Source of the DNA: Squalus acanthias | Taxonomy: Eukaryota | DNA: 64,000 bases | Assembly: GCA_030390025.1 (NCBI GenBank) | Contig: CM059431.1 | Location: 137,394,001 to 137,458,000, forward strand | Direction of reading: 5' to 3' | Notes under the pieces: model-generated | What the model saw: only the letters and a program-made list of their open reading frames with translations | The model's database searches: none | Told to the model about the DNA's origin: nothing | Made by a program: the position numbers and the translations under genes | Shown: piece by piece, positions 20,021 to 64,000 of the stretch | Numbering within the stretch: the first letter of the stretch is position 1 | Layout of the letters: each line of letters opens with the position of its first letter

Positions 20021-20381
20021 GGGGTGGAGCAACAGCGGCGAGGCGGCGGCGGTAAAAGGCGGCAGCGACCAGGTAGGCCCACAGAGGCGGCGGACCTGGG
20101 TGGAGCAGCAGCGGCGAGGCGGCGGCGGTAAAAGGCGGCAGCGACCAGGTAGGCCCACAGAGGCGGCGGACCTGGGTGGAGCAACAGCGGCGAGGCGGCG
20201 GCGGTAAAAGGCGGCAGCGACCAGGTAGGCCCACAGAGGCGGCGGACCTGGGTGGAGCAACAGCGGCGAGGCGGCGGCGGTAAAAGGCGGAAGCGACCAG
20301 GTAGGCCCACAGAGGCGGCGGACCTGGGTGGAGCAACAGCGGCGAGGCGGTGGCGATAAAAGGCGGCAGCGACCAGGTAGG
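20021..20381 (+). repeat. GC-rich 76-bp tandem repeat (about 4.7 copies) at the CR1 5' end
   Basis: GGTGGAGC recurs ending at 20030, 20106, 20182, 20258 and 20334. Confidence 0.95.
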
Positions 20382-20597
20382 CTTTCACCAAGCCGAGAGC
20401 AGGAGAGAGGTAAAAAATAATCGAAGTGTGACGTCACCAGAAAGCAGGTAAGTCATTGGTTGATGAGTATTTCTCATTTTTTTATACAAAACTTCAATTC
20501 CATAGTTTATAGTTTCTCGGGTATCTGTGGTGTAGCGGAGACTGCTGGCATAAATTAACTGAAGGGTAAATAATAAATTTTTAATTAATTACATAGA

Positions 20598-21554
20598 ATG
20601 GGAGAGCAGGTGATGTGTTACTGCTGCAATATGTGGGAGCTGGTGGACACCATTGATGTTCACGGTGAACACATTTGCAGTAAGTGTTGGCTGCTCGAGG
20701 AACTCCGGCTCCGTGTTGATGAGCTGGAGTCCGAGCTTCAAACACTGCGACACATCAGGGAGGGGGAGAGTTACCTGGACTCCGTGTTTCAGGAGGTAGT
20801 CACACCAATTAGAGTAAGTAATTCAGAAGTAGCCCGTGGTCAGGGACAGGAAGGTGTGACTAAGAGTGAGGCAGGTACAGGGATCCAGGAGGTAGTGTTG
20901 GAGGAGCCGCAGCCCTTGCTCTTGTCCAACAGGTTCGAGGCTCTTACTCCCTGTGTGGATAGGAGCGGGGACTGCAGGGAGGATGAGCAACCTGGCCACA
21001 GCACCGTGGTAAGGGGGGCCATTCAAGTGGGGGGAGTAAAAAGAAATGTTGTAGTGGTAGGGGATAGTATCATTAGGGGGATAGATAGGGTTCTTTGCAG
21101 CCAAGAGCGAGAGTCCCGAAGGCTGTGTTGCCTGCCCGGTGCCAGGGTTAAGGACATCTCCTCTGGGCTGGAGAGAAACTTGGAGTGGGAGGGGGAGGAT
21201 CCAGTTGTCGTGGTCCATGTTGGTACCAATGACATAGATAGGACAAGGAAAGAGGTTCTGCTGAGGGAGTTTGAGCAGCTAGGGGCCAAATTAAAAAGCA
21301 AAACCTCGGTGGTAATAATCTCTGGATTACTACCTGAGCCACGAGCAAATTTGGCTAGGGTAAATAAAATCAGGGAGTTGAATGTGTGGCTCAAAGACTG
21401 GTGTGGGAAAAATGGGTTTTGCTTCTTGGGACACTGGCACCAGTACTGGGGCAGGAGAGAGCTGTTCCGTTGGGACTGACTTCACTTGGCCAGTGCTGGG
21501 ACTAGTGTCCTGGCGAATCGAATAACTAGGGCTGTGGAGAGGGCTTTAAACTAA
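20598..21554 (+). pseudogene. CR1 ORF1 (zinc finger/leucine zipper plus SGNH/GDSL esterase), one premature stop at 21477
   Basis: CxxC...CxxC, a coiled coil, VVGDSII, CLPGA, HVGTND and D*LHL (from DGLHL). Confidence 0.9.
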
Positions 21555-21669
21555 TTAGTGGGGGGGAGGTTTCAAGAGAGCAAAAAATAAAAATGACAAC
21601 AGAGAGGGTCATAGACATAGGTAGCAGTAGGGGAACCACAAATCAGAGCGTGGCAGGAAGGGACAGAGT

Positions 21670-24543: not shown

Positions 24544-25286
24544 GTCTAGGTTCGGATCGGTCATGGCCCTGTGGGTAGTGGAGCGGGCCCAGGGACCGTG
24601 TGGCCTGATTCTGCTCCTATTTCGTGTGTGCAATTCTGTTAGATGCAGGAGATGGTTCTGTGATAGTAGATTGGCGGTTAGGATCAGATCAGCCATGATC
24701 TTATTGAATGGCGGAGCAGGCTCGAGGGGCCGATTGGCCTACTCCTGCTCCTATTTCTTATGTTCTTATGTTCTTATGGGAACACCATAAACTCCGCTCC
24801 AAGTCACACACCACCCTGACATGGGCAGATATCCGCCGTTCCTTCATCGTCACTGCGTCAAAACCCTTGCGATCCTTGGCTGACAGCACTGTGGGAGCAC
24901 ATTCACCACATGGATTGTAACTATTCAACAAGAAGGCGAACCATGATTTTCTCCAGGGGACATGGTCTGGGAAATAAATGCTGACCTTGCTGGCGAGGCC
25001 TATATCCCCAGAATTCATTTTAAAAGTATAGCTCAGACATGTACTCATGAATATATTTCCCGGTTGGTAGTCCCAGTGAAATTTTACATGTGATCACAGT
25101 GAAGTTATTTATAATTTCGCTACTAGTAGCGACGGGAACTAACCTCCATCAGCTAATTGATGATATCCCTACACATAGCGACTGGAACCCTTTTACTCAA
25201 GGCGTGTTGAAACTAAAGCATTGCATGTTGAAATTGTGATCTATTTGAGAAGGAATAAATGAATAAAAGAAATGCTTTAATCTTAC

Positions 25287-44300: not shown

Positions 44301-47300
44301 TTCTGGTATTATTCTTGTACCTCTTTATTGCACTTTCTCCAGAGCCGCTATATCCTTTTTGTAATATGGAGCCCGGAACACTCCACAGTATTCTATGAGT
44401 CGTCTAACAATGCTTCTATATAAGTTCAACATAAACTCTCTTCTTTTCAATACTATTCCTCTAGAAATGAAATCCAGTGCTATTCCTCTACAACTGAAAC
44501 CCAGTTCTCTGTCTGCATTTTAATAGACTTCTTAATCTGCGTCTCTACTTTTAATGATTTATGAATCAGTACCCCTAGATCTCTTTGATCCTCTACCCCA
44601 TTCAGACTCTTATTTTCCTATCAGTTTATGGCCTCCTTATACCTCCTACCAAGATGTACCAGCTCACACTTATCTATATTTAAATTAATTTACCAACTGC
44701 CCGCCCAGTGTGCAAGCTTATTAACGTCTTCTTGTATTTTGTCGCAGTTTTCCTCAGTATTAAGTTTATCCCCCAATTTGATTCACTCCAGAAATTTTGA
44801 AATTGTACTTCCGATCCTGGGACCAAATCATTTATGTAAATGATTATATAACTGCTGTTCCCGTTTTTCGTGATTTCACTACGCGGAGCCCTAAATCTCT
44901 CTGCTCCTCCACAGTGCAAACCTTCTCACCATTTAGAAAATACACTGATCCATTTTCTCAGGTCCACAGTGAATGCACTGTGCCACAGTTTTGCCCACTC
45001 ACTTAATTTATCAATGTCCCAGTAAAACTTTCTGCCCCCATTTCCAAAATTTACTGTGCCACCTAACTTGTTGTCGACAGTAAACTTGTTAACATGGTTC
45101 TCTATTCCTTCATCTAAGGCATTGATAGATATAGTGATAAGCTGAGGCCTCAGCCCAGATCCCTGGGCGACACCACTAATCACAGCCTGTGAAGGTTCAA
45201 ACAGAAAGAAATGTTTCATAGTTTTAGAGCGTTGTTATAATTATAGACAGGCTTTATCATCAGAAGTTGATATGTCACATTTTTTTCAGTTTATAATTTG
45301 TTGGTGCATATGGTGTGTTCTGGAAAAGACAACATCTACAATCCTTGTAAGTATCTCCATAATGGCTTTCCACTTCAACAAAGCTCTCCATTGCAAGAAG
45401 TAATGTTTCATCTTGAAATTCTGGTTACTGGGCTGATTATGTGCATATTAGCAAAGTAACCGTCAACTGGGATTGTTCAAGCAACTATTAGCCCCTATAA
45501 TGAGGGTGGATCTTGACTTTGTGCGATAGTGTCAAAGTAGTGGTAGCCAGTCAGCAGCCCATCTTACATCTCCCCCTATTTATATTTCCATTGACTGCAA
45601 TGGGATGGAAATTGGGGCGGGGTTGATAAAATGGGCGGTTAAATCGACATCACTTGTTTTACACGATTGTCGAAATTAAAAATTAGACTCAATGGGACTA
45701 TATGTTGACTTTGTGCGATAGTGTAAAACGTGTGATAGCGAATCTGCAGCACATTTTACCTTTCTACCGTATAACATTTCTAGAGGAATACAACTCAAAA
45801 GCAGAGAGTTTATATTAAACTGATACAAAACCTTGGTTAGACCACACTTAGAGTATTGTGCACTATTCTGATCTCCATATGACAAAAGGGTTATAGAGGC
45901 ACTGCAGAAAGTAACAAATACAAACAATTTACAAGGATGATGGCAGAAAAGAATGGTTACAACTATCAGAAAAGACCGAGAAGGCTGGATATATTTTCGC
46001 TTGAAAAGAGCAAAATGTGAGATGAATTGAAATTACGAAGAAGTTCGCTATGGGAGACGTAGAGAAAATGATTCCACTTGTGTGTGGGGGGAAGGGGGGG
46101 TCCACCAAAACTAAAGTCTTAAATATAAGACAGTCACTACTGAATCCAATAACGAATTAATGAGATGCTTCTTTACTCAGAGAGTGGAGAGAAATAATTG
46201 CATTTATGTAGCGCCTTTTCTACAATTCTACAATTGATGCATGTAACGGGAAGCTGTATACGTACATGAGGGAGAAAGGAAAAGAAGGATAGTGTGAGAT
46301 GAATTATGTTGGGAGAGGCCTCTGTGGAGCATCGACATGTTGGTGTGGTGTAAAATTCTATGTAATTCTAAGTAATATATATCTTCAGAGGACTTCAATA
46401 GAAAGGGGGAACCAGTCCCCGAACTCGTAGGGAGGGAGAGAGGTAAAAATAATCGAGGTGTGACGTCACCAGAAAGCAGGTAAGTAATTGGTTGGTGAGT
46501 ATTTCTCTCTTTTTAAACTTAAACTCCGTGGGGGAAAAATTCAGTCGCGCCCCGTTTGGGCCGCAATTATCGGCCGGGCGCAAAGATTAGCGCCTGGCGC
46601 TAATTATCGCCACCGACTGCAAATTTGGCTTTTATCACCCCTGGAGGTGATTGCAGCGCTAAATCAGGCGCTTCACACCTGTTTTATGGCGCAAAGGCCG
46701 AGGAGCGAGGCGCTACCTCAGAGTGCTGGCGAAGCTCATGTAATGTCAGTCAGTAATGGAACACACACACAATGGCACGGGCCAGTTCTTAAAGGGGATG
46801 GTTAATCTTGCTTTCCATCCACATCCTACTCATTGTAGCCTTGAATCTCGGCCTGGAGAGACCTGCACATCAAATGTGCTGGAAAGAACAATGGAGAGTA
46901 CCAGGCAAAGAGCTCAGAGTGCAGCCCCCCACAGTCTCTGCTAAAACGAAAAAGGAATGGCAAATCAACATGAACCTGCAAAGTGCTGCTCAATACCCAA
47001 AACTCCTTCACACAACGTTGAATCTCTCCAGAAGTCTCTCCCTCTCTCTCTCAGAATGCGTAGTTCAAAAATGGCACCAACAATAAAAGGCAGGAAGCGG
47101 TCACCTTTAAATAGTGCTCCCCCTTTCCCTTCATGACTGCAGAACGCTCCCCTCAACCTGTCATTGCTAGCGTCAGGCGGTAAGGCAGGGGGCGCCACTC
47201 AATATCCGCTCCGGGGCGATACCGGGGCGTTGCGCACTCGAGTGACGTCATGATCTGCTGGCGCAGGAGATCGTGGCGGTAGTGTTTAGCGCCGCTGCAA

Positions 47301-50300
47301 AATGTCTAGTTAAGTTCGCGAGCGGCGCAAACATCGCTGCGCCCGGGCGCTAGCTGCTTTGCGCCCCATTAGCGCCCTCTTAAGGCGCTAATGGGAGGTG
47401 CAACCAACTGAATTTTTCCCCCTGTGGGTTGTAGTTAATAAGGCCTTTCTGGTGCAGAGTGACTGTTGGTAAACCATTTAACTGGTGTAATTTAGAGGGA
47501 TTGATTTAATTTAAATCTAATTAATTAGAGGGGATACTAGCATCTATAATCGGGCAGATGGACCCCATTGAGGCTCACAGTGATTACATCTGTGACAAGT
47601 GTCTGCTGCTACAGGAACTCCAGCTTCGTATTGATGAGCTGGAGTCTGAGCTTCAGACACTGCAACACATCAGGGTAGGGGAGAAGTACCTGGACTTTGT
47701 GTTTCAGGAGGTGGTCACACCTATGAAGTTAATTAATTCAGATGTAGCCCATGCTCAGGGACAGGACGGTGTGATTACGAGTGAGGCAGGTACGGGGATC
47801 CAGGAGGTAGTGTTGGAGGAGCCGCAGCCCTTGCTCTTGTCCAACAGGTTCGAGGTCTTACTCCCTGTGGGGACGGGAGCAGGGACTGCAGGGAGGATGA
47901 GCAACCTGGCCACAGCACCGTGGAACGGGGGGCAATTCAAGAGGGGGGAGTAAATAGAAATGTTGTAGTGGTAGGGGAATAGTATTATTAGGGGGATAGA
48001 TAGAGTTCTCTGCAGCCGAGAGCGAGAGTCCCATAGGCTGTGTTGCCTGCCCGGTGCCAGGGTTAAGGACATCTCCTCTGGGCTGGAAAGAAACTTGCAG
48101 TGGGAGGGGGTGGATCCAGTTGTCGTGGTCCATGTTGGTACAAACGACGTAGATAAGACAAGGAAGCCGCTTCTGTTAAAGGAGTATGAGCAGCTAGGGG
48201 TCAAATTAAAAAACACAACCTCAAGGGTAATAATCTCTGGATTATTACCTGAGCCACGAGCGAATTTGGCTCGGACAAATAAAATTAGGGAGTTAAATGA
48301 GTGTCTCAAAGATTGGTGTGGGAAAAATGGGTTTTGCTTCCTGGGACACTGGCACCAGTACTGGGGCAGGAGGGAGCTGTTCCATTTGGACGGGCTTCAC
48401 TTGGCCAGTGCTGGGACAAGAGTCCTGGCGGATCATATAACTAGGGCTGTAGAGAGGGCTTTAAACTAACTAGTGGGGGGGAGGTTCCTAGAGAGCAAAT
48501 AAAAAAAATGACAACAGAGAAGGTCATAGACTTAGGTGGCAGTGGGGAAATTAAAAACCAGAGTGTGTCAGGAAGGGGCAGAAGGTATGGAGTAAAAGGT
48601 AAAGTAATAAAAAGGGCAAAAGCAGGAACTAAGTGTCACAAAACATATTTGAAAGTTCTCTATCTGAATGCACGTAGCATTCGTAACAAAATAGACGAGT
48701 TAATGACACAAATAACTACATATGGGTATGATCTTGTGGCTATTACAGAAAAATGGCTGTAGGGTGACAATGCCTGGGAATTAAACATACCAGGTTATTT
48801 AACGATCTAGAAGGACAGGCAGGAAGGAAGGGGAGGTGGGGTGGCTATGTTAATAAAGGAAGGAATCACTGTAATACAGAGAAATGATATTGGGTCAAAA
48901 GATCAGGATAATGAAACAGTTTGGGTGGAGATAAGGAATAATAAGGGGGAAAAAACACTAGTGGGCGTAGTCTATAGGCCTCCGAACAGTTGCAACTCTG
49001 TTGGACGGAGTATCAATCAGGAAATAGTTGAGGCTTGTACTAAGGGAACATCTTTAATTATGGGGGATTTTAACTCCCATATTAATTGGACAAATCAAAT
49101 TGGGCAGGACTGCCTTGAGGATGAGTTAATTGAGTGTATTAGGGATGGGTTTCTTCAGCAGTATGTAACTGAACCGACCAGGGGGCAAGCAACCTTAGAT
49201 CTGGTCCTGTGTAACGAGACAGAATTAATTAAAAATGTCCTAGTAAAGGATCCCCTTGGAATGAGAGACTATAACATGTTTGAATTCCATATTCAATTAG
49301 AGGGTGAGAAGGTTGGATCTCAAACAAGCATGCTAAGCTTGAATAAAGGAGACTATGAAGGTATGCGAGCGGAATAGAGTAGAGTGGATTAGGAAAATAG
49401 ATTAAAGGGTAAGACGATACATGATCAGTGGTGTACATTTAAGGAGTTATTTTACAACTTCCAAAAAATATATATTCCACTGAGAAGAAAAGGCTGTAAA
49501 AGAAAAGACAGTCATCTGTGGCTAAGTAAAGAAATTAAGGATAGTATTCGACTAAAAACAAGGGTGAATAAGGTAGCCAAATCTAGTGGGAGGATAGAGG
49601 ATTGGGAAAACTTTAAAAGACAGCAAAAAATAACAAAAAGATCGATTAAGAAAGGGAAGATAGATTATGAAAGTAAATTAGCAAAACATAGAAAAACAGA
49701 TAGTAAGAGTTTTATATAAAAAGAAAAAGGGTGGCTAAAGTAAATGTTGGTCCCTTAGAGGATGAGACCGGGAAATTAATGATGGGAAATATGGAGATGG
49801 CAAATACACTGAATGGATATTTTGTATCAGTCTTTACAGTAGAGGACACTAAAAAATATCCTAACACTGGACAAACAGGGGGCTATGGGGGGGAGGAGCT
49901 AAACACGATCAAAATCACTAAGGAAGTGGTACTCGGTAAAATAATGGGACTCAAGGCGGATAAATCACTTGGACCTGATGGCTTACATCCGAGGGTCTTG
50001 AGGGAAGTGGCAGTAGGGATTGTGGATGCATTGGTAATAATTTTCCAAAACACCCTGGACTCAGCAAAGATCCCGGCGGCAGACTGGAAAACTGCTAATG
50101 TAACACCCTTATTTAAAAAGGGCAGTAGACAGAAGGCTGGAAACTATAGACCGGTTAGCCTAACATCCGTGGTAGGTAAAATGTTGGCGTCCATTATTAA
50201 GGAGACAGTAACGGGACATTTGGATAATCATAATTTGATAGGACAAAGTCAGAATGTTTTTATGAAGGGGAAGTCATGTTTGACAAATTTGCTAGAGTTC

Positions 50301-53300
50301 TTTGAGGAAGTAACATACAGGCTGGATAAAGGGAACCAGTGGATGTGGTGTATTTAGACTTCCAAAAGGCATTTGACAAGGTGCCACACAAAAGATTATT
50401 GCTTAAGATAATAAATCACGGGATTGGGGGTAATATTCTGGCATGGATAGAGGATTGGCTAACTAACAGAAGACAGAGAGTTGGGATAAATGGTTCATTC
50501 TCAGACTGGGATTCAGGAACTAGTGGTGTTCCGCAGGGGTCGGTGCTGGGTCCCCAACTCTTTACAATCTATCTTAACGATTTGGAGGAGGGGACCGAGT
50601 GTAACATATAAAAGTTTGCAGATGATACTAAGGTGGGAGGGAAAGTAGTGAGTGAGGAGGACATAAAAAATCTGCAAAGGGACATAGACAGACTAAGTAA
50701 GTGGGTAGAGATTTGGCAGATGGAATGCAATACTGGAAAGTGTGAGGTTATGCACTTTGGCAGGAAAAGTAGTAGAGCAAGTTATTATCTTAATGGCAAG
50801 AAACTGGAACATACTGAAGTACAAAGGGATCTGGGGTTCCTGGTGCACGAAACTCAAAAGGTTAGTATGCAGGAGCAGCAAGTGATTAAGAAGGCCAATG
50901 GAATGTTGGATTTCATTGCTAGGGGGATAGAATATAAAAATAGGGAGGTATTGCTTCAGTTGTACAAGGTATTGGTGAGACCGCACCTGGAATACTGCAT
51001 ACAGTTTTGGTGTCCATACTTAAGAAAAGACATACTTGCTCTCAAGTCAGTACAAAGAAGGTTCACTCGGTTAATCCCGGGGATGAGGGGATGGACATAT
51101 GAGGAGAGGTTGGGTAGATTGGGACTATACTCATTGGAGTTCAGAAGAATGAGAGGCGATCTTATTGAAACCTATAAGATTGTGAAGGGGTTGGATCGGG
51201 TGGATGCGGGGAGGATGTTCCCGATGATGGGTGAAACTAGAACTAGGGGGCATAGTCTTAGAATAAGGGGCTGCTCTTTCAAAACTGAGATGAGAAGGAA
51301 CTACTTCACTCAGAGGGGGGTAGGTCCATGGAATATGCTGCCCCAAAAAGCTGTAAAAGCTACATCATTACATTAGTTTTAAACATAAATAGACAGTTTC
51401 CTAGAAGTAAAGGGAATTAAGGGTTACGGGGAGCGGGCAGGAATTTGGACATGAGTCTAGGTTCGGATGGCCCAGTGGGTAGCGTAGCGGGCCCAGGGGC
51501 CGTGTAGCCTGATCCTGCTCCTATTTCGTATGTCCAATTCTGTTAGGTTCAGGAGATGGTTCTGTGATAGTAGATTGGCGGTTAGGATCAGATCAGCCAT
51601 GATCTTATTGAATGGCGGAGCAGGCTCGAGGGGCCAATTGGCCTACTCCTGCTCCTATTTCTTATGTTCTTATGAAATAAAAATGGGGATAAATGAAAAC
51701 GTATTTCCGACTCGCTACCACAGTTTTACACTAGCGCCCAATGTCAAGATCAATCCCACTGTGTTTTACTCATTAGCAGTAGCTGTACTCCTAAACACTT
51801 CTTCTAATTGCTTCCTAGATTGCATTAAAGGTTAACTAGAAAATATTCATCTTTGTAAATATTATGTTATCTGTTCATTTTATTGATCAATATAGTTTTC
51901 TATTTCATACTACATATTTACTCCCTAGAAAACCGTTTCTCCAACAAATTAGAATTATAGAACAATATGCACAGGAGGAGGCCATTCTGCCCGTCGAGCC
52001 TGTGCTGGCTCTTTGAAAGAGCTATCCAATTATTCCAATTCCCCCTGTTCTTTCCCCATTTAGCCGTGTATTTTTGTTCCTCTTTAAGTACATATAGAAT
52101 TCCCTTTTTAAAGTCACTATTGATTCTGTTTCCATCATCCTTTCAGGCAGTGTATTCCAGATTGTAACCAATTGTCATAAATATGAGCTCTCTGGTTACC
52201 ACCCTTATGCCAGTAGAAACAGTCTCTCCCTATCTACTCAAAACAATTCCTAATTTCGAACACCTCTATTATATCTACCCATAAGCCATCTATTCTGAGG
52301 AGAACAATCCCAGCTTCTCCAGTGTCTACACATAACTGAATTCCCTCATCCCATGCACCATTCTGGTAAATCTCCTCTGCTCCGTTTCCAAGGTCTTGAG
52401 ACCCTTCCTAAAGTGTGGTTCCTAGAAATTAGATTGAACAATTCTCAGTTCCATTGTTTATGCTTTATGCTAACCATATGTCCTACTCTGCTGGGTCAAA
52501 AGCCATTCCTAAAAATAAAATGTATTTCTTAATTTTGGAAAATTAGTATTGGATGGAATTTCAAACCCCTTCCCATCTTGAGACAAATGCTTTGAATGAG
52601 AATTTTTGCAAACATTGTTGCAAGTTTTGTGAAAATACAACCAACTACATATATCTGAATAAACTACTGCTTATTCTTCGAAGTTGGCGGCGTATCTGAT
52701 GCTGAATATGATCAGTGCCCTTATTACCATAGCGAATCTGGTCCAGCTTTCCATTGGAAGTGTCTGCGATTCTTGGTCCATTACTTTGGATGTAAGTACA
52801 GAATTGCAATCTTAATACGTGACTAACATCTTTAAATCAACGAAGACTCAATTTGCATCTGTTCTGATTTTTTTTAAGAGAATGTACAGCACAGAAAGAG
52901 GTAAATGTGCCCCAGCAGATCTATTTAGTGTTTATGCACCGCACGGGCCTCCTCTCACCTTACTTCATCTAACCCTATCAACAGAGGCAGATTTTCTTTT
53001 ACCCTCATGTGTTTATCTCACTTCCACTTAAATACTTCTATAATATGCACCAGAACCTTTCCATGTGGTAGCGAGTTCCACATTGTCACAACTCTCTGGT
53101 TAAAAAGATCCTGCTGAATTATTTGTTGAATTTATTCGTGACTAACTTATATTTATGGTCCCTAGTTTTGGACACCTCTACACGTGGAAACATCTCTACA
53201 TCTAACCTGCCTTAATTTTAAAGACCTCTATTAGGTCACCTCTCAGCCTTCTCTATTCTAGAGAAAAGAGCCCACCTTAACAGTCTGTGACGCATTCTCC

Positions 53301-54957
53301 GACAAAATTGCCAAAAGCATCTTGCTTGAATTGCCTGAAAGGGCAGTGGAAGCAGATTTAAAAGTAACTTTCAAAATGGAATTGGTTAAATACTTGGAAA
53401 GGATTAATTGCAGGTCTATGGAGAAAGAGCAAAGGGGAGTGGGAGAAATTGCACAGCTCCTTCAAAGAGCCGGCACAGGCACGATAGGCCGAACGGCCAC
53501 CTTCTGTGCTGTATGGTTCTATGATTCACATCCTAGTCCAATATTTCCATCCCCCGCCCTCGAACAACCCTTCATCTGAAGAATTATTCTTGACTCCCTG
53601 TGGCTGGTCGCCTAGTATTAAAACAAGGGGGGTGAAATTGATTTGCAGCAAAGCGCCTGATGTTCTGCTCAATTGAACTCAATTGGAAAGGAAATCGGGA
53701 TGAGAGTAAAATGGGCGTCCGATAGCGAAGACCAATTTCAATCCCAACGTTCGTCATTGGCCCAAAATTGTCAATGTCTAATCCTAAATTTCAACGTGAG
53801 TTTCTCCTTCAATGGTGCTGTCGCTGGGAGTTGCACCATTCTCCTTGCAAGAAGCAGTCTTAGTTCCGATTGTCTTAACATATTCTTGCAACTGATCCAC
53901 AGAGATACCGTTTCGGCCTCGTACTCGTTCTCTTCCTCCTGGGGCTGTTGGAGCTGTCAGTATCAATCGTCGTTTCCATTTTCGGATGCAAGATGTTGTG
54001 GAAAAATTCTAAAATACAATTCAATAAGGTTGGTAGTTACAATGCCACATTGCCAATCAATATTTCCGGTTCAGCTGCTTAGAAAGAAAGACCTTGGGTG
54101 AGAAATTATTTTCAGGCGGTGGCGCAAAACGGGCGGCCGATCCGATCCGCCCATTTTGCGCCACATTCCGAGACGAATTTCTCGGCTCTTGCATTTATAA
54201 AGTGCAGATCAAGACCCCGGGACGTCCCAAAGTGCTTGACATCCAATGAAACACTTTTAAACTGTAGTTAAGGCTGTAATGTTGGAAACTCGGTAGTCAA
54301 TTAGTGCACAGCAAGTTCCCATAAACATCAATTTTATAAATGAGCCGGATACCTGATTATTTTATGTTACACTTTCAGAGATAAATATTTGTCCCGGAAA
54401 CGCGGGAGAACTTCCCTGCCTTACTTCTAAATAGTGCCATGGAATCTATTGCATCCACCTGAGAGAGCAGATTCGGCCTCGGTTTAACTTCTCATCCGAA
54501 TGATCACACCTCTGACAGTGCAGTGCTTCCTGACTACCGCACCAGGACTGTCATCTTACATTTTGCTGCTGAAGTCTCTGGAGTGGGATTCTGAACCCAC
54601 AACATTCTGACTCAGAGGCGAGCGAGCTATCACCTGAGCCAAGGGGGGCACACTATAGCTATTTGATCAATTCAGAATTTGGTGTTCACTTCCCAAAGTC
54701 TTGCAATGAGAAATCTCGTAACGTACCCTGCAATACATCTGGCATGGAGGAAATGATCATCATTTATGTCAGTTTGTTTGCGTATAATTAATTATTTGTT
54801 TATTTATTTAATATTTAGACATCAATTCAGTTTTCCCTTTCAGCCTCCAAATAAGCCTACTGATCAGGACAACACCTCTCAAACACCGATACCCCAAGGT
54901 CCGACCTACAGCAGTCTGATGCCTCCAACACCGGTGTACAATGGATTTCAATTATAG
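41165..54957 (+). CDS. MS4A-family (CD20/FcεRIβ-like membrane-spanning 4-domain) gene copy B, intact, 226 aa
   Basis: join(41165-41329, 42779-42889, 45290-45346, 52684-52791, 53903-54028, 54844-54957). All introns are GT-AG phase 0 with no stops. Four hydrophobic segments carry MS4A motifs ([38 protein letters not shown]). Orthology not assignable by eye. Confidence 0.88.
42779..42889 (+). CDS. MS4A-like copy B exon 2 (TM1): [37 protein letters not shown]
   Basis: CTCTTTTAG acceptor and GTGAGT donor. Confidence 0.88.
43225..45190 (-). mobile_element. Cluster of nested decayed CR1 fragments
   Basis: Minus-strand RT remnants ([20 protein letters not shown]) and CR1 tails at about 43225 and 43890. 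Confidence 0.7.
45290..45346 (+). CDS. MS4A-like copy B exon 3 (TM2): [19 protein letters not shown]
   Basis: TTTTTTTCAG acceptor, GTAAGT donor, 57 nt, homologous to 17257-17313. Confidence 0.88.
46400..51673 (+). mobile_element. Near-full-length decayed CR1 LINE (copy 2), sense orientation within an intron of MS4A-like copy B
   Basis: 5' UTR core shared with copy 1; ORF1 about 47558-48469 and ORF2 48508-~51450 with stops and frameshifts; (TTCTTATG)n tail. Confidence 0.93.
46530..47422. mobile_element. Non-autonomous PIF/Harbinger-like transposon nested in the CR1 5' UTR
   Basis: Perfect 16-bp TIR GGGGGAAAAATTCAGT / ACTGAATTTTTCCCCC, GC-rich subterminal arms, flanks CGT/TGT. Confidence 0.8.
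52684..52791 (+). CDS. MS4A-like copy B exon 4 (TM3 and loop): [36 protein letters not shown]
   Basis: TTCTTCGAAG acceptor, GAT|GTAAGT donor, 108 nt. Confidence 0.85.
53903..54028 (+). CDS. MS4A-like copy B exon 5 (TM4): [42 protein letters not shown]
   Basis: CCACAG acceptor, AAG|GTTGGT donor; LE...FGCK is the MS4A TM4 signature. Confidence 0.9.
54190..54645 (-). mobile_element. Deu-domain SINE
   Basis: Reverse-complement similarity to the 17780 and 28745 copies, including the tRNA-like head. Confidence 0.65.
54844..54957 (+). CDS. MS4A-like copy B last exon: [37 protein letters not shown]
   Basis: TTTTCCCTTTCAG acceptor, TAG stop, AATAAA at 55096-55101. Confidence 0.85.
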   Translation, partial: PPNKPTDQDNTSQTPIPQGPTYSSLMPPTPVYNGFQL

Positions 54958-55139
54958 AGTGGGAGATTGAGCAGGAAGACTAATTGTTGCCGTGGAGTAT
55001 AAGTCCAGTTCATGACTGACCTCGCTTACTTTAATACAACAATGCATGTGAAACCAAGGGCTTTACCTGAACAAAAGCAACTAATAGATAAACAGAATAA
55101 AGAGAAATGTGAGAACTGAGCAATAAATCAACGAACATT

Positions 55140-56205
55140 TCAGAACATGAGGCAATTCGGCCCATAGTGCCTGTGCCGGCTCTTTGAATGAGCTATCCAA
55201 TTAGTCCCTCTTCCCTGCCTTTTCCCCGTAGCCCTGCTATTTTCCCCTGCCAGTATATATCAAATTCCCTTTTGAAAGTAGCTATTGAATGGGCTTCCAC
55301 CACCATTCAGGCAATGCATATTGTTCATCGCTTATATAAGAACATAGGAATTAGGAGCAGGAGTAGGCCATACGGCCCCTCGAGCCTGCTCCACCAGTCA
55401 GTAAGTTTATGGCTGAACTTCTGCACCAACTCCAATTTACCGCCTGATTCCCATATCTCATGATCCCATTAGTGCCCCAAAATTTACCAGTTTCAAACTT
55501 GAACATACTCATTGAATGGACATTCACAACCCTCTGGGGTAGACAATTCCAAAGATTCACAATACTCTGAATGAAGAAATTTCTCTTTGTCTCAGTCCTA
55601 AATGACCGACCCCTTATCATGAGTCTGAGCCATAGTTCTACACTCTCTAACCAGGGGAAACCCTCTCTCAGCTTCTACACGCTAAGAATGTGGACGTCAA
55701 TATAAGATAACCCAACACTCTTCTAATCTCCAGAGAATATAGGACCATTCTACTCAATATCTCCTCAGAGGACAGCCCTCTCATCCCAGGAGTCAATCTA
55801 GTGAAGGTTCGTTACACCCCTCTATGGCAAGTTTATCCTTCTTTAGGTAAGGAGACCAAAAATTTGCACAGTACTCCAGGTGTGGTCTCATCAAAGCCCT
55901 ATACAACTGTAGCAAGACCTCCTTAATCGTACACTCCAACGCACTTGCAATAACAGCAAACGTAGCATTGTCCTTCCAAAATGATTGCTCTAACTCCTTG
56001 TTAACGTTCTGTGATTCGTGTACAAGGGCAGGCAAATGCCTTTGAATAAAAACAAAGGTCTCTCACCTTTTATAAATACTCTGATTTTCAATTCTTCATA
56101 CCAAGCTGGGGTGATTGTACATAGATCATTAAAATGTCCTGGACAGGTACAGCTGTCCTTTGTACCGAGAGGACTAGAATACAAGGGAGTATACACCTGG
56201 AGTAC
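55140..56205 (-). mobile_element. CR1 fragments, mostly minus strand
   Basis: CR1 tail at about 55335 and an LLQLYRALMRPHLEYC remnant. Confidence 0.7.
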
Positions 56206-56207
56206 TG

Positions 56208-57117
56208 TGTACGAAAGACTGGTATTAGAGATTCTTAGTAGATGGGAATCATATATGTATACATTGAAGTGTAGCCATTGACCAACTAATCTTACCCATG
56301 ATTCTCTGAGTATGAAATGCTAAAGACTGTTCGAATGTAGCCATGAAGACAGTTAAAAAGCAGTTTTGACTAAGCTCAGATAACAAACAGCCACAGGCTG
56401 CGAGTGAAGGTTAAATTGTTATATAACATATTATAGTACTCATAACATATTATAATGCTAAGTAGGAATTAGAGTTCGCTTAACAAAACTAATTGCAAAT
56501 ATATTTAAAAGATAATTAGTATAAAAGATGTAAAATGAAAGAGATCTTGGGAGTTAAATTATCTACTTGGTAGATCAAAGTGAGGTAGTCAGAACACCGT
56601 CAAGGTAAAGGAGACCGCTCCGACATGGGCCCCTTGGGATTAGGCCGTATACTGCTTGTAACAGGGAAGTTAGAATAAGAGAGATAAGATAAGTTCCAAT
56701 AGAGTAGAGTTATTGGAAAAAAATACTGAGCCAGGAGGAGTCAAGATGCAGCCCTTAGTCTGAGGGACAGATGGTATTTTGAGCATTAGAACCTATGAAA
56801 AAGGTGATTTTTTTAAAGACCATATACGGACACTGGCCAAATGAACTGTTGATAAGAAAAGGGTTACAACCCCGATACTAAAAGAGTAACTTCCCACAGA
56901 ACTGCTGCGAAGGCAAAGCAACAGATTGAAGACGACGTCACCTGTGTCTGAGAGGTTCCAGAGACCTTGGGCTGTGAGCTACTTGTTAAAACTATCCCCT
57001 ATTGTTAAGTATATTACGCTGTAAGCTTAATAAATCTTGATCTATTGCTCAAACATACTGGCTGCTGCCTATTGGTGTCTTGCCCAAGAAATCTGAGGGA
57101 TAATTTAAGATTTTACA
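56208..57117 (+). repeat. Putative 5' LTR
   Basis: TGTA...TACA termini, AATAAA at 57029, followed by a PBS. The left boundary is uncertain because the 3' LTR is outside the window. Confidence 0.65.
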
Positions 57118-57120
57118 GAT

Positions 57121-57138
57121 TCATACCCCAGATGGGAC
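57121..57138 (+). promoter_or_regulatory. Primer-binding site, tRNA-Arg-like
   Basis: TCATACCCCAGATGGGAC versus TGG(C/T)ACCCCAGATGGGAC, the complement of the vertebrate tRNA-Arg(CCT) 3' end as recalled. Confidence 0.6.
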
Positions 57139-57161
57139 AAGACAAATCGACTAGTATTGTG

Positions 57162-57375
57162 AGAAGTCGCACAACACTAGGTTATAGTCCAGCAGTTTTA
57201 TTTGAAATCACAAGCTTTCGGAGCGGCTGCTCCTTCGTCAGGTGACTTCACCTGACGAAGGCGCAGCCGCTCCGAAAGCTTGTGATTTCAAATAAAACGG
57301 TTGGACTATAACCTGGTGTTGTGCGACTTCTCAGTTTTGTCCACCCCAGTCCAACACCGGCATCTCCACATCATT
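57162..57375. mobile_element. Palindromic Penelope-like insertion with hammerhead motifs in the ERV leader
   Basis: About 86-bp inverted arms; CTGACGA-AGGAGC/GCTCC-GAAAGCTT; 12-bp TSD ACTAG(T/C)ATTGTG at 57150-57161 and 57376-57387. Confidence 0.78.
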
Positions 57376-57522
57376 ACTAGCATTGTGTAATAGATCGGAC
57401 CTCGAAAGTAGCTTCCTGATCAGCTGCTGCTCTTGAGGAGGATTTAACCCCTCGTGGGGAATGCCCGTGGATTGCTCGCTGATAGTTACTAATTTTAGAG
57501 GTTTGTTAAGAAAATCATAAAA

Positions 57523-58705
57523 TGACTAGCAATAGTTTCATTAACGCATAGAAGAGTAAGTTAGACAGAGGTGCCTGTGAGGAGGAAGTACAGGTATTAT
57601 TAACGGAATCTTTAACCAAAGGAGACCGAATCCCCTTTGAAGAAGTGATAAACTTTATTCAGGAAAGTTTGAATCTAAAAAAATAATAAAAGTGATAAGG
57701 TTACCAGGCAACTCGCCTATGCAGTATTTAACTGTGCTCAAAGAGATGATGAGTATTGTAAGAAACAAAGTAAAGAGATAGAAGAGCTAAAAGCACAACA
57801 CAATGAGTTAGAAGAAAAACATATTCAGGAGGCAGAGGACTTTAAAAAGCAGCAAGAGCTGGAGATCGAACACATAAAAGGAAAGCAAGGTTCAGGAATT
57901 GGGAGAGTTGAAAAGGCGATTTACCGACTCAGAGAGCCAGAGCTCTCAAGCTGCGGTAGTTCCACAACAACAGAGTGTGTGCGCGGTCCAGGCAGGGGGC
58001 GCTATGCGCGGTCCAGGCAGGGGGCGCTATGCGCGGTCCAGGCAGGGGGCGCTATGCGCGGTCCAGGCAGGGGGCGCTATGCGCGGTCCAGGCAGGGGGC
58101 GCTATGCGCGGTCCAGGCAGGGGGCGCTATGCGCGGTCCAGGAAGGGGGCGCTATGCGCGGTCCAGGCAGGGGGCGCTATGCGTGGTCCAGGCAGGGGGC
58201 GCTATGCGCGGTCCAGGCAGGGGGCGCTATGCGCGGTCCAGGCAGGGGGAGCTATGCGCGGTCCAGGCAGGGGGCGCTATGCGCGGTCCAGGCAGGGGGC
58301 GCTATGCGCGGTCCAGGCAGGGGGCGCTATGCGCGGTCCAGGCAGGGGGAGCTATGCGCGGTCCAGGCAGGGGCCGCTATGCGCGGTCCAGGCAGGGGGC
58401 GCGATGCGCGGTCCAGGCAGGGGGCGCTATGCGCGGTCCAGGCAGGGGGCGCTATGCGCGGTCCAGGCAGGGGGCGCTATGCGTGAACTAGCTGAAACAA
58501 ACAGGCGTTACAATCTTGTGCTCTCTGCAGCCCCCCTTTCCCACGTCGATTCGAAGGAAATTGTTACAACTGTGGGAAACCTGGGCACTATTCAAAAAAT
58601 TGTAGGAAACCTCGACAACAGGGCCTACGGTCCCCTCCCTTTCGGGGAAATCCACCCCCACACGCGATAATATCAGCTAATCCTCTGGAGCCCAAGGTAG
58701 ATCAA
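57523..58705 (+). pseudogene. gag: ERV gag remnant (coiled-coil N-terminus, CCHC knuckle), internally deleted
   Basis: KEIEELKAQHNELEEKH coiled coil; CYNCGKPGHYSKNC at about 58562-58603; stops and frameshifts. Confidence 0.7.
57981..58484 (+). repeat. 25-bp G-rich minisatellite, about 20 copies, inside gag
   Basis: Unit GCGCGGTCCAGGCAGGGGGCGCTAT. Confidence 0.97.
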
Positions 58706-58711
58706 TTGGCC

Positions 58712-61700
58712 TGCCCCACTCCTTTGTTAAACAGTACCCATTTCCCAAAGAAAGTCATCCCTATATTGGAGATGTCATCGACTCCCTCTTAAAACAGGGC
58801 ATTCTGAGAACTGGCACTTTCACGACCAATTCACCGGCTTGGCCAGTTTGGAAGTTGGACGATAGCTGAAGGCTCACTATTGATTACCGAAGCCTTAACA
58901 AGGTTAAGCCCAAGAGCGGCCCTATTGTTACGGATGCTCCAACCTTATTATCAGAACTCCTGAAAGACTCTAAATATTACTCCACCCTAGACATTGCGAA
59001 CGGCTTTTGGAGTATTCCCGTCAGAACAGAGGATCAACATAAATTTGCTTTCACCTTTGAGGACCAGAGGTACACATGGACGTGCCGACCCCAAGGTTTC
59101 CACAACGCCACGACCATCTTCCATACCAGAATGCTACGGATCCTGAAAACTTTTTCTAAGCCCCAGTGTCTGCTTCAGTATGTCGAGGACTTGCTACTGG
59201 CTACTAGTACAATCGAAGAACACCTTGAACTGCTAGATGAACTATTAACACTGTGAAGCAGTGCAGGCTTGAAAATTAACCCTCGAAAAGTTCAGCTTTT
59301 GCAGGAACAGGTCACCTATTTGGGAGTGACGATCTCTCCGCAGGGTCTAATTCCCGATGAACACAAGATAGAGGTAATTCAACGACTCCAGCTATCTGTG
59401 TCCAGGACAGCACTCCGATCGTTTTTGGGACTAGTGGGATACCAGCGTAATTTTATTCCTGGATTTGCAGAACTTGCAAAGACCATCTATGAACTGTTAA
59501 AAGGAAAAGAGGATCAAATCTCCTCCCTGTGGGGGCCAGATCACACCGCTGCAATTGAGAAATTGAAACAGGCTGTTATGCAGACTACCTGTTTGATATC
59601 GCCCGACCCGACACAGCTATTCCATCTCGAGGTCGCATCCATCGACCATAGTCTGACTGCGGTCCTATGCCAAGAACGACTGCACAGGTTGGCACCTATT
59701 GCATATGCCACACGGGTTTTGCAGGGGGCAGAAATGACTTATTCAGCGTGTAAGCGCCACCTACTGGCGACGTTCTGGGCCACCCAACACTTTACCTACA
59801 TTACGGGCTTACAGAGGATTATTTTACATTCCCCTCACAACCCATTGAACCTCCTTATCAAACCAGGCAATTCTTTGATCTCATCCCAACGCATCAGTAA
59901 ATTGACTTTGGAACTATTACAAAGGGACATTGATATAACATCCAAACAGACTACTCTTTTACCACTGATGCTTGCGTAGGAGGGACACCCTCACAAGTGT
60001 CCACTACCTCTAATAGACTTTGAGTCCCGTCCTGATTTGCGATCACCAATAGAAGGAGCCTCTGAAATATACATGGATGTCTCCTCCTAACACATACAGG
60101 GCTCACCCCATACCGGATGTGCTGTGGTCCTACCCAAGAAGACTTAAGTTTAAAAGTTTACAAACACTCAAGCCAAAATGCAGGATTTTGGTCCTCCTCA
60201 TCGCCGTTCAAGAAACTTCGAGCTACCGGCAAACATTTTGTCTGACAATGCCTATACCATTAATACCATGCTGTCCCTTCCCCTTTACCAGAAGAATTCC
60301 TACTTCTCGTCAGACGGTAAATCCCTAATCCATGGGCCTTGGCTACGTCTCCTATGGCAGGCCCTGAAGGCACCACAGAATTCCTGTCACATTGGCAAGG
60401 TTAATGCCCATAAGAGAGACCTGTCCGCTCGCACACTGGGGAACAAGGCGGCAGATGAATCTGCTAAAGATGCGGCCCTGGCCGGTGATTCCCTCCCTCT
60501 ACAACTTGAGGAGGTAATCCCATTTGCTGCAGTTAGCTCAGCTCGCGATCTGGCTTCCCTTCAGACAGAGTATAGCCCTATCAAACGGCCATCAATTGGC
60601 ATGAACAAGGTAAGCCCTTACCGGCACCCACCAGATGGGCCTCCAAGCCCCTCTTTACCACAATGTCTCAGATAAGTATCCGATTGTCTGTATTACCCCA
60701 AACCTGGCAGACGAGCTCTTGTTCCTATTTCACTCCCACACTGTAGGAGGTCATTACTCAGCAGACGTCACTTTCGAAAAATTGCCTCCACGGCCTGGTG
60801 GCCTAATATGAAGGAAACTGTAAATTTATATGTTTCACGATGCATACCTTGTTTGTAGCAGAAACCCTCCCCTTGTTCCAACCTCCTTCGAAGTCAGCCA
60901 GGCCCTGATGGGCCCTGGACCCATGTTCAAATTGGTTTTATTGGTCCCCTCCCGCTATCGCAGGGTAATTATAAAAACGGCATCATTGTTATCGACCAGT
61001 TCACTAAATGGATCGAGGCCTTCCCCTCCCGATCCAACACTGCGCTTACTGCGGCCAAGTTGTTATTGAGTGAGGTGTTCTGTAGGTGGGGACTGCCACT
61101 TCAAGTTGATAGCGATCAGGGCACCCACTTCACTGGTGAAGTCTTTTCCAACTTACAGGAAATTATGGGAATTAAACATAAGCTACATATAGCTCATCAT
61201 CCCCAATCGTCCAGGATAGTGGAAAGAGGGTACACTGAAATCCTTGTTAGGAAAAATGTGTACAGGACACTCCACTCAATGGGTCAACATGTTACCCATG
61301 AGTTTAACGGCAATTCGGTCCACGCTACCTAGGATCATGGGGATATCACCTTACCAGGCAATGACTCGGAGGTTGATGAGGACTCCAGACCATCTAACTT
61401 TGACTGGCACTACCCCCTGACGCAACAACCATGGAACCACTCGTAGTTGGAGCGCACATTAGAGCATATTAATGAAGTTAACCGACACGTGGCAAAGAGT
61501 TCAGGGAAATCTAAAAAACAAATCAGGAAATATTTTGACCAGAAGGTTCGAACTTTCAAGTATCAGATCGGTGATCGAGTCATGTTACGAAATTATGGGA
61601 AAAAGGAAAATGCGATTGACCCCAAGTGGAACGGACCCTACTCGATGGTGGATAAATTGAATCCAGCCATGTATCTGGTTCAGTACACTAAAGGGAGAGT

Positions 61701-61761
61701 GGAAAAGAGAAAAGTAACTAAATCGTACCATATCAATCAGTTAATGACGGTGAAAGAATAA
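58712..61761 (+). pseudogene. pol: ERV pol remnant: RT, tether/RNase H-like, RNase H, integrase (no protease visible)
   Basis: RT: KQYPFP, IDYRSLN, LDIANGFWSIP, PQGFHN, QYVED. Tether: PIAYATRVL. RNase H: IYMDVSS, KVNAH, GNKAADESAK. Integrase: HHCC, VDSDQGTHF, HPQSSRIVER, PKWNGPY. Confidence 0.92.
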
Positions 61762-64000
61762 ATGCTGCACTCTTTATTCCTCCAAGTTGCCAAAATGGTA
61801 GGACTCAAACGCATAGTGGGACTTCTGATGCTTGTTGGTATCAACCAGACTTCAAACGTTATCATCATCCAGAATGGAATAAAGATGCCAACCGACGATA
61901 TACCGTCGTTAGAATGGGGAGCGGCTTCAGGAGACGGAAGCGACATGACCGTGTACTGTGATTATTGTGAACACGAAAATACGACCGATGGGACTTTGTA
62001 TTTCCGGGCCAGAGAGGGCGAACGGGTTAAAATAGAATGACTATGTACTAAAGACAATGTTCCAGTAACTCCAAAGTTTCAATTAGGAAAAGGAAAGTTT
62101 GTAGATCTAGGATTTGGGTTAACATAAGAACATAAGAAATAGGAGCAGGAGTAGACCAATCGGCCCCTCGAGCCTGCTCCGCCATTCAATGAGATCATGG
62201 CTGATCTGATCCAACCTCAACTCTAAAGAACACAAGAAGTAGGAGCAGGACCAGGCCACTCGGCCCCTGGGCCCGCTCCGCCACCCACAGGGCCTTGACC
62301 GATCCGAACTCAAACTCACGTCCAATTTCCAGCCCGCTCCCCGTAACCCCTGATTCCCTTTACTTCTAGGAAACGGTCTATTTCTGTTTTAAATTTATTT
62401 AATGAAGTAGCTTCCACAGCTTCCTGGAGTAGCAAATTCCACAGACCCACTACCCTCTGAGTGAAAAAGTTTCTCCTCATCTCAGTTTTGAAAGAGGAGC
62501 CCCTTATTCTAAGATTATGTCCCCTAGTTCTAGTTTCACCCATCATTGGGAACATCCTCACCGCGTCCACCCGATCAAGCCCCTTCACAATCTTATATGT
62601 TTCAATAAGATCGCCTCTCATTCTTCTGAACTCCAATGAGTAGAGTCCCAATCTACTCAACCTCTCCTCATATGTCCACCCCCTCATCCCCGGAATTAAC
62701 CGAGTGAACCTTCTTTGTACTGCCTCGAGAGCAAGTATGTCTTTTCTTAAGTATGGACACCAAAACTGTATGCAGTACTCCAGGTGCGGTCTCACCAATA
62801 CCCTATACAACTGCAGCAATACCTCCCTGTTTTTATATTATATCCCCCTAGCAATAAAAGCCAACATTCCATTGGCTTTCTTGATCACCTGCTGCACCTG
62901 CATACTAACTTTTTGATTTTCTTGCACCAGAGAAGGTTCTTGGGTTCAACGAAATGGTTAGCATTACACCAAATAGTTTGGGGATCCCATATCTGGATAC
63001 ACTGAATTAGCCCAAAATAGGTAGAAGACACAGGGGAATGGTAGGATGCTATGATGCACAGCCAGGAAAGAGACCCAGGCAAGGACAAATGCAACAGCTT
63101 GAGATCAAGGGAAGAACGGAGGGGATAATGTTACAAAGGAAAAGTGACAAGCATAAAAATAAGAAATGCACATTATTAACAAAAGGACCATAAAACGGAT
63201 TGGTTATCACCCGTAGCTATAAACAATTGTATAGTGACGTTCGGTACGAAATTATTCCGGTAATATTTAATGTTACAGTTATTCCCTTTCCCCGAAATTT
63301 ATGTCCTAAAAGACACTGCCGATATTATGACCACTTGGGGAGGAAAATGGTAAAGGACATTTAGGATAAAAACCATGCACAAGACAGATGGAGTTCATGG
63401 GATGTCGGACAGACTTACGTAATGGTCAACATTTCAGACCATAATAGCAACCATTTGAATATAAAAAGAGGCTCGGGGTAATGGTTAGGTATAGGAGCCA
63501 CTGCGGGAACCACTGCCTTGAATAGAGTAGATATAGAGACTGTGTGGGAACACGACGAGGTAATTTGGAGTCAGTTGAAAGGCCTGCTATCCAATATGAA
63601 TAAGGGAGATTCAGACACCATACTGGAGTTAGAGAATATGCTGATGAAACAGAAATACACAGACAAATTCAGGATCACTTTAACAATGCGACAAAAGGGA
63701 TTAATAGAAGAGAATAAAACATCTCAAGAGATATGGTACGCTCCATTTACGGGAGTTACATGATCGATCAATTAATGGCAGGATTAGGTGAAATAGAACG
63801 CAACCGGGTCCCCTCATTTGTCAATGATTCCATGATTAGGAAATGGCTTCATTATGATAAGGACTATAATGTAAAAGGGACAAGGAAGCAGGGATTAGTA
63901 TATTTGGTAAGAGGAAATGGGGATTATGACAGCCAGCTGATTAATCGAAATGATACATGGGACAGTCCAAATATGGGGTGCTGCACCAAATACAGTGGGG
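61762..64000 (+). pseudogene. env: ERV env-like glycoprotein remnant interrupted by a CR1
   Basis: ATG abuts the pol stop; signal-like hydrophobic stretch; N-glycosylation sequons; IKR|GSG*WLGIGATAGTTALN cleavage/fusion-peptide-like segment at about 63460-63525, followed by a helical heptad-like region. Confidence 0.7.
62122..62926 (-). mobile_element. Young 5'-truncated CR1 inserted in env
   Basis: Open ORF2 C-terminus (62316-62819) close to copies 1 and 2; (TTCTTATG)n tail. Confidence 0.93.

Follow-up and report, generated by a model that had tools for sequence, protein, structure and literature searches.

Which retroviral lineage left the provirus at the end of a 64,000-nt stretch of the Squalus acanthias genome (contig CM059431.1, positions 137,394,001 to 137,458,000; hereafter the window, to which all coordinates refer unless another locus is named), and what kind of envelope protein (Env) did it carry? 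The element lies on the plus strand at 56208-64000 and comprises a long terminal repeat (LTR), a primer-binding site (PBS), gag, reverse transcriptase (RT), a tether followed by RNase H, a GPY-type integrase and env. The original prediction had assigned it to a 'loki/SnRV/class III-like lineage' (SnRV, snakehead retrovirus) with a fusion-protein-like Env, possibly undescribed in this host group.

The reading that we favour, with a probability of about 0.7, is that the locus is a dead germline copy of a simple, early-branching retrovirus outside the lokiretroviruses (loki), the ancestral Env of which was an F-type class I fusogen homologous to loki Env. As part of this reading, the group would include lineage I of the elephant-shark CmiERV as well as endogenous retroviruses (ERVs) of Xenopus and coelacanth, and would be SnRV-related, of 'clade Huo' and class III-like. 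The original prediction is partly supported: it was right in placing the element among basal retroviruses distinct from Gypsy, with two RNase H domains, an Arg primer and an envelope that is F-like and not of gamma type.

The envelope

In the family to which this copy belongs, Env shows a signal peptide, an RXKR site, a fusion peptide, a coiled coil (from predicted secondary structure) and a transmembrane segment. The motif R-x-K-R precedes a fusion-peptide-like stretch in three sister regions, and R-x-K/R-R is present in all three relatives; in this copy the basic cleavage site (63461-63478) is decayed, the fusion-peptide-like stretch starts at 63482, and the transmembrane segment and a 25-aa tail are located beyond the window. 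The gamma-type motifs ISD and CX6CC were found in none of nine env regions and none of three relatives, in agreement with the predicted fusion-protein-like env, the likeness of which to F was judged by eye; no standard gamma-type transmembrane subunit was thus encountered. The 3' part of env matches P0235 (GCC29952.1, 739 aa, from the bamboo shark Chiloscyllium punctatum) with 33-34% identity (E=5.4e-27), and five env relatives were found among 1.84 billion representatives, three of them named (Chiloscyllium, Pristiophorus and Rhinoraja, all chondrichthyan), in keeping with a cartilaginous-fish host.

The homology with loki Env is suggested by motif matches, seen by eye, to the published loki Envs; these run in the same order along some 500 residues and extend to the cysteine spacing. 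The shared motifs are an N-terminal GP-x-G-hydrophobic strand and, following the first helix, G-x-x-D/E-x-x-x-x-R-I/V-P; further on, they are an L-L-x-x-P-I/V strand, W-x-x-P-x-L-x-x-C, C-G-x(7-10)-C and V-x-x-G-x-x-x-L-x-P-V. The clusters nearest to the ESM features of the Env core are class I viral fusogens (0.93-0.94); they are mixed and include Fusion_gly (10% of the members) and Baculo_F.

Several computed results weigh against this homology. Pfam reported no fusion family in the env pieces and the relatives, the PF00523 profile matched nowhere in the genome (the controls were likewise silent), PDB sequence searches with P0235 and with the env profile returned nothing significant, and the AlphaFold model of a full-length natural relative had a pLDDT of 38, unusable for recognition of an F fold. 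A Foldseek search with that model placed two paramyxovirus F0 proteins at ranks 10 and 13, with E about 0.01 and TM-scores under 0.1, which is no evidence. A word-indexed homologue search with env yielded none among 975 candidates. The structural comparison that had been proposed for Env was therefore run on too poor a model and gave no significant fold support, leaving the likeness to loki Env as one observed by eye; computed support for an F fold is weak.

The blank or ambiguous outcome of all computed F tests would be expected if Pol is placed correctly but Env lacks homology with both loki Env and F, having no more than the generic features of a class I fusogen (cleavage site, helices, transmembrane segment). 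However, collinearity over some 500 residues with conserved cysteine spacing and the viral fusogens among the ESM neighbours argue against such a generic origin, which we regard as having a small but appreciable chance of being right.

Relative to loki Env, the family has an extra N-terminal domain of about 190 aa that is probably immunoglobulin (Ig)-like. Ig_3 is weakly matched in the env-like tails of the relatives P0003 (E=0.06) and P0122 (E=0.012), the UniRef name of P0235 is 'Ig-like domain-containing', and all ten weak matches in a PDB sequence search with a profile of the Env head belong to the Ig superfamily (E 0.09-0.67). A Foldseek search with a model of the head domain gave no match at E<=0.001, and most of the 50 listed fold matches were Ig domains.

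During infection, Env would have been cut at the furin-like R-x-K-R site ahead of the fusion peptide and would have refolded via two helices, and the Ig-like head probably bound a cell-surface receptor, by analogy with the Ig-fold receptor-binding domains (RBDs) on gamma-type Env. The family envelope appears to work like that of lokiretroviruses. Its core may be of an ancestral F type or may derive from a loki donor.

Some sequences touching on this Env are of interest in their own right. P0235 is an annotated protein homologous to it over most of its length and may represent a recent proviral insertion or an env gene co-opted by its host. The amphibian Pol gene models P0003 and P0122 run on into env-like C-terminal tails with Ig-like domains, and the Pyxicephalus env-like tail resembles a V-type adhesion-molecule domain. 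Further env families with the same core and 38-50% identity occur in the S. acanthias genome, so that this Env type is diverse here.

Phylogenetic placement of Pol

Reference sequences were identified by comparison with the RT alignment that Wang & Han provide as a supplement: P0129 matches SnRV (three exact motifs), and P0134, P0136, P0138, P0139, P0141-P0145, P0155 and P0178 resemble published loki RTs by eye. The tree labels 'epsilon_like', 'gamma_like', 'bird_ERV' and 'gypsy' were assigned from domain content and source names. RT identities were taken from a set of 226 rows, from which rows below 200 aa, P0001 and P0003 had been dropped, and the RT trees and approximately unbiased (AU) tests used hand-picked subsets of 51, 53, 38 and 35 rows; CmiERV lineage I is absent from all trees.

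In a database comparison, the best Pol relatives were from Xenopus tropicalis (59%), coelacanth and frogs. The idea that these top hits are the published Loki-Xtr/Lch elements was rejected, because the sequences differ. The RT is 57% identical to P0002 of X. tropicalis, compared with 35-39% to loki RTs. In three IQ-TREE RT trees this copy was the sister of P0002 (support 97/92, 99/95 and 100/98) and was enclosed by non-loki retroviruses (100/97, 99/97 and 100/99), and loki formed a separate clade (100/100 in each). The union of this copy with loki was rejected by the AU test (p-AU 0.02). By the defining RT test, the element is not a lokiretrovirus; of the predicted affinities, the one to loki is thus lost, whereas the SnRV-related and class III-like ones may be retained through the likeness to CmiERV lineage I.

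These results also bear on the possibility that the family represents a divergent lokiretrovirus, or a sister group of loki, in cartilaginous fish. In its favour, Env is loki-like by eye, and the coiled-coil N-terminus of gag recalls the loki smc-gag. In the RNase H tree, which spans 150 columns, carries a long-branch warning and lost two of 39 references (domain missing), this copy, six relatives and two other ERVs are on the loki side (99/99), and in the integrase tree, built without any CGIN1 sequence and with nine of 54 references lost for the same reason, loki is the sister of four members of the RT group (97/98). For the integrase of P0002 the score is about 200 bits with most loki Pols and 94 with SnRV, and a union of the wider group with loki was not rejected (p 0.115 and 0.107). 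Nevertheless, the RT identities, the three RT trees and the rejected union of this copy with loki all speak against this possibility, this copy's own integrase remained unplaced rather than joining loki, and a CCHC knuckle is present here, whereas none was detected in the two loki polyproteins scanned. We give it a slim chance. The proposed RT and integrase phylogenies thus delivered a non-loki, non-Gypsy RT and an integrase without a position.

With respect to SnRV, a union with the wider group was not rejected (p-AU 0.57 and 0.31), no starred branch united the RT with SnRV, and in an RT plus tether tree the group branched as a grade near the base, SnRV being nested more deeply (93/97). Over the N-terminal part of RT, this copy shares 76 of 134 residues with the best database hit, 68 of 134 with SnRV and 54-55 of 131-132 with two loki Pols. 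The RT on CmiERV scaffold 2 matches at 81 of 134 positions in a by-eye count, above all eight computed comparisons (33-57%), and gag, tether and integrase motifs on that scaffold are collinear with this copy, again by eye. The sequence comparison therefore points to CmiERV lineage I as the closest described family. The suggestion that the lineage was undescribed in this host group is not supported for Pol, which is already represented in elephant shark, and the by-eye match largely places the RT within a described ERV family.

A foamy-like ERV (clade Tu) was also considered; foamy Env has an F-like fold according to PMC11468914, and the best PDB sequence match of the RT is foamy Pol (E=4.6e-40), although murine leukaemia virus RT scores nearly equally (E=2.3e-39 to 1e-38). 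Grouping with foamy-like elements was not rejected (p 0.27, the foamy references being loci of the same genome), but the 53-row RT tree did not join this copy to them, and that same-genome family is about 38% identical to P0002 and has its own long branch. Moreover, the CCHC knuckle contrasts with foamy Gag, which according to a table in PMC8278194 has no such knuckle or Cys-His box, and the family protease gave weak retropepsin and no spuma A9 matches in Pfam. In view of the RT tree placement, the foamy idea is not supported and is improbable. An env-carrying Gypsy element of the errantivirus type, brought to mind by database names reading 'Gypsy integrase-like' and by the F-type env genes reported to be widespread in Gypsy elements (bioRxiv 2023.10.26.564294), is refuted by the tether with its second RNase H and by the 100/100 separation of RT from Gypsy in all trees, and its probability is negligible.

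Comparison with known retroviruses

Han 2015 (PMC4422223) describes CmiERV lineage I in elephant shark as clustering with snakehead retrovirus, and according to Xu et al. 2018 clade Huo infects all major vertebrate lineages. In addition to the Pol likeness, CmiERV lineage I and this element have in common a coiled-coil gag, one CCHC knuckle, a simple gag-pol-env organization and a cartilaginous-fish host. They differ in Env, which on CmiERV scaffold 2 is gamma-type (CXXC, ISD and CX6CC by eye) and here is F-like with an Ig-like head, and in the PBS, which on that scaffold we take to be of the serine type. Since a closely related Pol is thus combined with a gamma-type Env in CmiERV lineage I, at least one exchange of Env has probably taken place within this Pol clade.

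SnRV resembles the element in its dual RNase H, its GPY-type integrase tail, an RT that is 51% identical over 134 aa and its tRNA-Arg primer. It differs in that the identity is 41% over the whole RT, the integrase is distant, its 205-codon 3' open reading frame (ORF) has no room in the 63-nt gap between env and the 3' LTR of this element, and its Env tail has 136 aa compared with 25. Lokiretroviruses share the dual RNase H, the coiled-coil gag N-terminus, the leaning of the wider group's RNase H and integrase, and the Env layout from signal peptide to transmembrane segment, and they differ in the RT, the CCHC knuckle and the extra Env domain. They were found in none of six chondrichthyan genomes by Wang & Han 2021 (PMC7947760).

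The foamy virus Env described in PMC11468914 is likewise an F-like (subclass Ib) retroviral Env with an added receptor-binding module; however, its RBD is large and lies between the subunits, whereas the extra domain here is small and N-terminal, and neither Pol nor Gag is foamy. An N-terminal Ig-like domain on a retroviral surface subunit is also found in the Ig-fold RBDs of Hotzel (bioRxiv 2024.03.17.585361), which are located on gamma-/alpha-type Env and not on an F-like core. ERV3/ERV4, as presented by Chong et al. 2014, have 5-bp target duplications, no zinc finger and no GPY/F, in contrast to 4-bp duplications (seen in two sister copies), a CCHC knuckle and GPY here. Ty3/Gypsy elements have a single active RNase H and an RT within Metaviridae, unlike this element.

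Structure and state of this copy

The gag, RT, RNase H-type, integrase and env features that had been predicted were all located by motif check and Pfam (Table 1). In RT, LDIANGFWSIP is at 58987-59019 and QYVED at 59176-59190. The acidic residues of the catalytic site, present in three aligned Gypsy RNases H, are missing from the first RNase H-like domain, which is therefore interpreted as a tether. The integrase has Pfam matches to H2C2 (E=2.4e-07) and rve (E=1.2e-10) and the motif WNGPY at 61627-61641; MLVIN_C (E=1.2e-4) fell short of the curated cut-off.

Table 1. Features of the provirus and of sequences inserted into it (window coordinates)
Feature	Position	Strand	Evidence or remark
5' LTR, TG...CA, 910 nt, AATAAA near 57029	56208..57117	+	Match to 3' LTR and sister LTRs
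PBS, tRNA-Arg(CCT), decayed	57121..57138	+	15/18 to host tRNA gene 3' end
Later palindromic insertion, 86-nt inverted arms	57160..57374	none	Inverted repeat; not viral
gag 5' part, coiled-coil region, with stops and frameshifts	57522..57979	+	Translations
25-nt tandem repeat, 20 copies, expanded within gag	57980..58483	+	Repeat search
Single CCHC zinc knuckle (nucleocapsid)	58562..58603	+	PF00098 E=8.1e-07
RT, catalytic motif altered, in-frame stops	58732..59529	+	RVT_1 E=2.7e-18
Tether (degenerate first RNase H)	59530..59916	+	PF17919 E=7.6e-22, PF17917 E=1.3e-15
Second, retroviral-type RNase H, stops and frameshifted stretch	60064..60477	+	PF00075 E=2e-06
Integrase: H2C2 finger, core, C-terminal GPY; stops and frameshifts	60700..61761	+	Pfam, motifs
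env 5' piece: signal-peptide-like hydrophobic stretch, first half of probable Ig-like domain	61762..62120	+	
CR1-type long interspersed nuclear element (LINE), 3' fragment inside env	62121..62930	-	Not viral
env 3' part: Ig-like remainder, F2-like segment, cleavage site, fusion-peptide-like stretch, heptad helix, Cys-rich region	62930..64000	+	

This copy is a dead provirus and has no function now, in view of two stops in the 415-codon RT-tether frame, five stops in the RNase H-integrase frame, frameshifts and the altered RT catalytic motif. It lacks about 960 nt of gag, including most of the capsid (deletion near 58520), and about 690 nt including the protease (deletion near 58710); the latter stretch is kept in all nine other insertions examined and is missing here and in a near-identical duplicate (L002/L012). 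Sister-copy alignments stop at 57161 and restart near 57374, on either side of the palindromic insertion, and this palindromic repeat recurs at other loci. The LINE fragment in env, the CR1 label of which is our assumption from the ORF2 C-terminus, is absent from sister copies and is 90% like the long CR1-type LINEs of the window.

The element extends beyond the window: env ends at the equivalent of position 64666, and the 3' LTR starts at 64730 and is broken off after about 243 nt. Over 245 nt, the 5' LTR is 92% identical to the beginning of the 3' LTR; it also matches the LTRs of sister copies. The predicted tRNA-Arg PBS is corroborated by sister copies: among eight loci with a 5' LTR, four match at 18/18, one at 15, two at 14, and one has a small insertion. 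ARAGORN called tRNA-Arg(cct) in five of six loci scanned. On C27 of the genome, at about 20.86-21.18 Mb, the 3' end of tRNA-Arg(CCT) has some 60 exact matches in a cluster, the one examined member of which is a tRNA-Arg gene. Reverse transcription would thus have been primed by tRNA-Arg, and integration would have produced a 4-bp duplication.

As predicted, gag combines a coiled coil with a zinc knuckle: the gag of a sister copy weakly matches coiled-coil families (E=0.004-0.02), and the sister-copy version of the capsid-region stretch missing here matches the Gag part of coelacanth P0005 (E=4e-05). A gag search against the stored proteins gave, among the matches listed, zinc-knuckle matches only. 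A weak Pfam match to aspartyl protease was obtained for one of two family copies scanned.

Family, copy number and age

The 3.7-Gb genome contains at least 49 DNA matches to pol (83-100% identity; best 40 of 755 candidates scored) and at least 149 protein matches to env (38-100%; best 140 of 6099 candidates scored), which points to several related families in it. Contigs 85-99% alike from sequencing runs of two other organisms cover all 30 bins of the element.

The Kimura two-parameter distance between the LTRs is 0.061 for this copy (240 nt) and 0.062 for the near-identical duplicate; in the remainder of the eight pairs it is 0.014-0.046 in four copies and 0.15 and 0.28 in two. An upstream host flank about 90% alike marks two copies located 4 Mb away as products of this one insertion, multiplied by segmental duplication; one of them yields the distance of 0.15. 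The proposed LTR dating, with d = 0.06-0.15, gives about 14-35 million years at a mammalian rate and tenfold more at the rate that Han 2015 (PMC4422223) assumed for sharks, both rates being borrowed, so that the insertion age is loose. After germline entry, copies would have decayed, and some would have multiplied by segmental duplication of host DNA.

The duplicated host flank (window 46000-56207, compared with L014, L016 and L012) occurs 4 Mb away as a tandem pair, the gag and protease stretches of which are 100% identical to each other; it is also present at 98% on a small contig, which is probably an allelic duplicate.

Neighbouring and related sequences

The same genome contains a broken integrase (L042:2098-3168, core at C5:70071172-70071816) with 79% identity to the coelacanth loki-type P0178 and about 49% to teleost loki Pols. 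It looks like the remnant of a true lokiretrovirus, in the host class for which Wang & Han had recorded none in six genomes. No RT match was found in the 2 kb upstream, and no RT match above 39% among the best 58 of 24038 candidates. Also present, with 49 PF03539 matches, is a foamy-like ERV family (L037-L041), the protease of which is of spumavirus type and the RT foamy-like.

In the window itself, a satellite array at 1-9866 has an 83-nt unit in about 122 copies with a 322-nt higher-order period. The two long CR1-type LINEs are at 20589-24772 and 47525-51674, one of them with an open ORF2 stretch of 524 codons, and a GC-rich 76-nt tandem repeat (4.8 copies, 20022-20382) lies just 5' of the first. 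A GC-rich minisatellite array (L011:2525-4850) immediately follows the broken 3' LTR.

Implications for the origin of retroviral envelopes

As a locus this is an ordinary dead provirus, with a Pol of a lineage previously recorded in the host group. The pairing of Env and Pol, by contrast, appears to be undescribed: no account of it was found in a literature search, most subscription journals and Repbase/Dfam being outside its scope. Two Env classes would thus occur on one Pol clade in cartilaginous fish, one of them having an F-type core that probably carries an Ig domain.

A more far-reaching possibility, which we hold tentatively and consider rather doubtful, is that the family is a fossil of an ancestral retrovirus design, with a non-loki basal RT, an F-type Env, an RNase H of the loki kind and, in relatives, an integrase of that kind. 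If so, the common ancestor of loki and all other retroviruses would already have had an F-type Env, in line with the F-like foamy Env, and gamma-type Env would be a later replacement, even within one shark Pol clade. In that case the 'independent Env acquisition' preferred by Wang & Han 2022 would be mistaken, and the Ig head would have come from the host, as a receptor-binding module added to a minimal F core.

Four scenarios for the origin of Env were set out by Wang & Han 2021, and Wang & Han 2022 preferred independent origins, with loki Env unlike canonical Env; the F-like nature of foamy Env has been shown since (PMC11468914). A Pol from the canonical side together with an Env homologous to that of loki would be a direct test case for this question: an Env tree that tracks the Pol tree would indicate ancient shared ancestry, an Env nested within loki Env would indicate a swap between lineages, and both outcomes would be informative.

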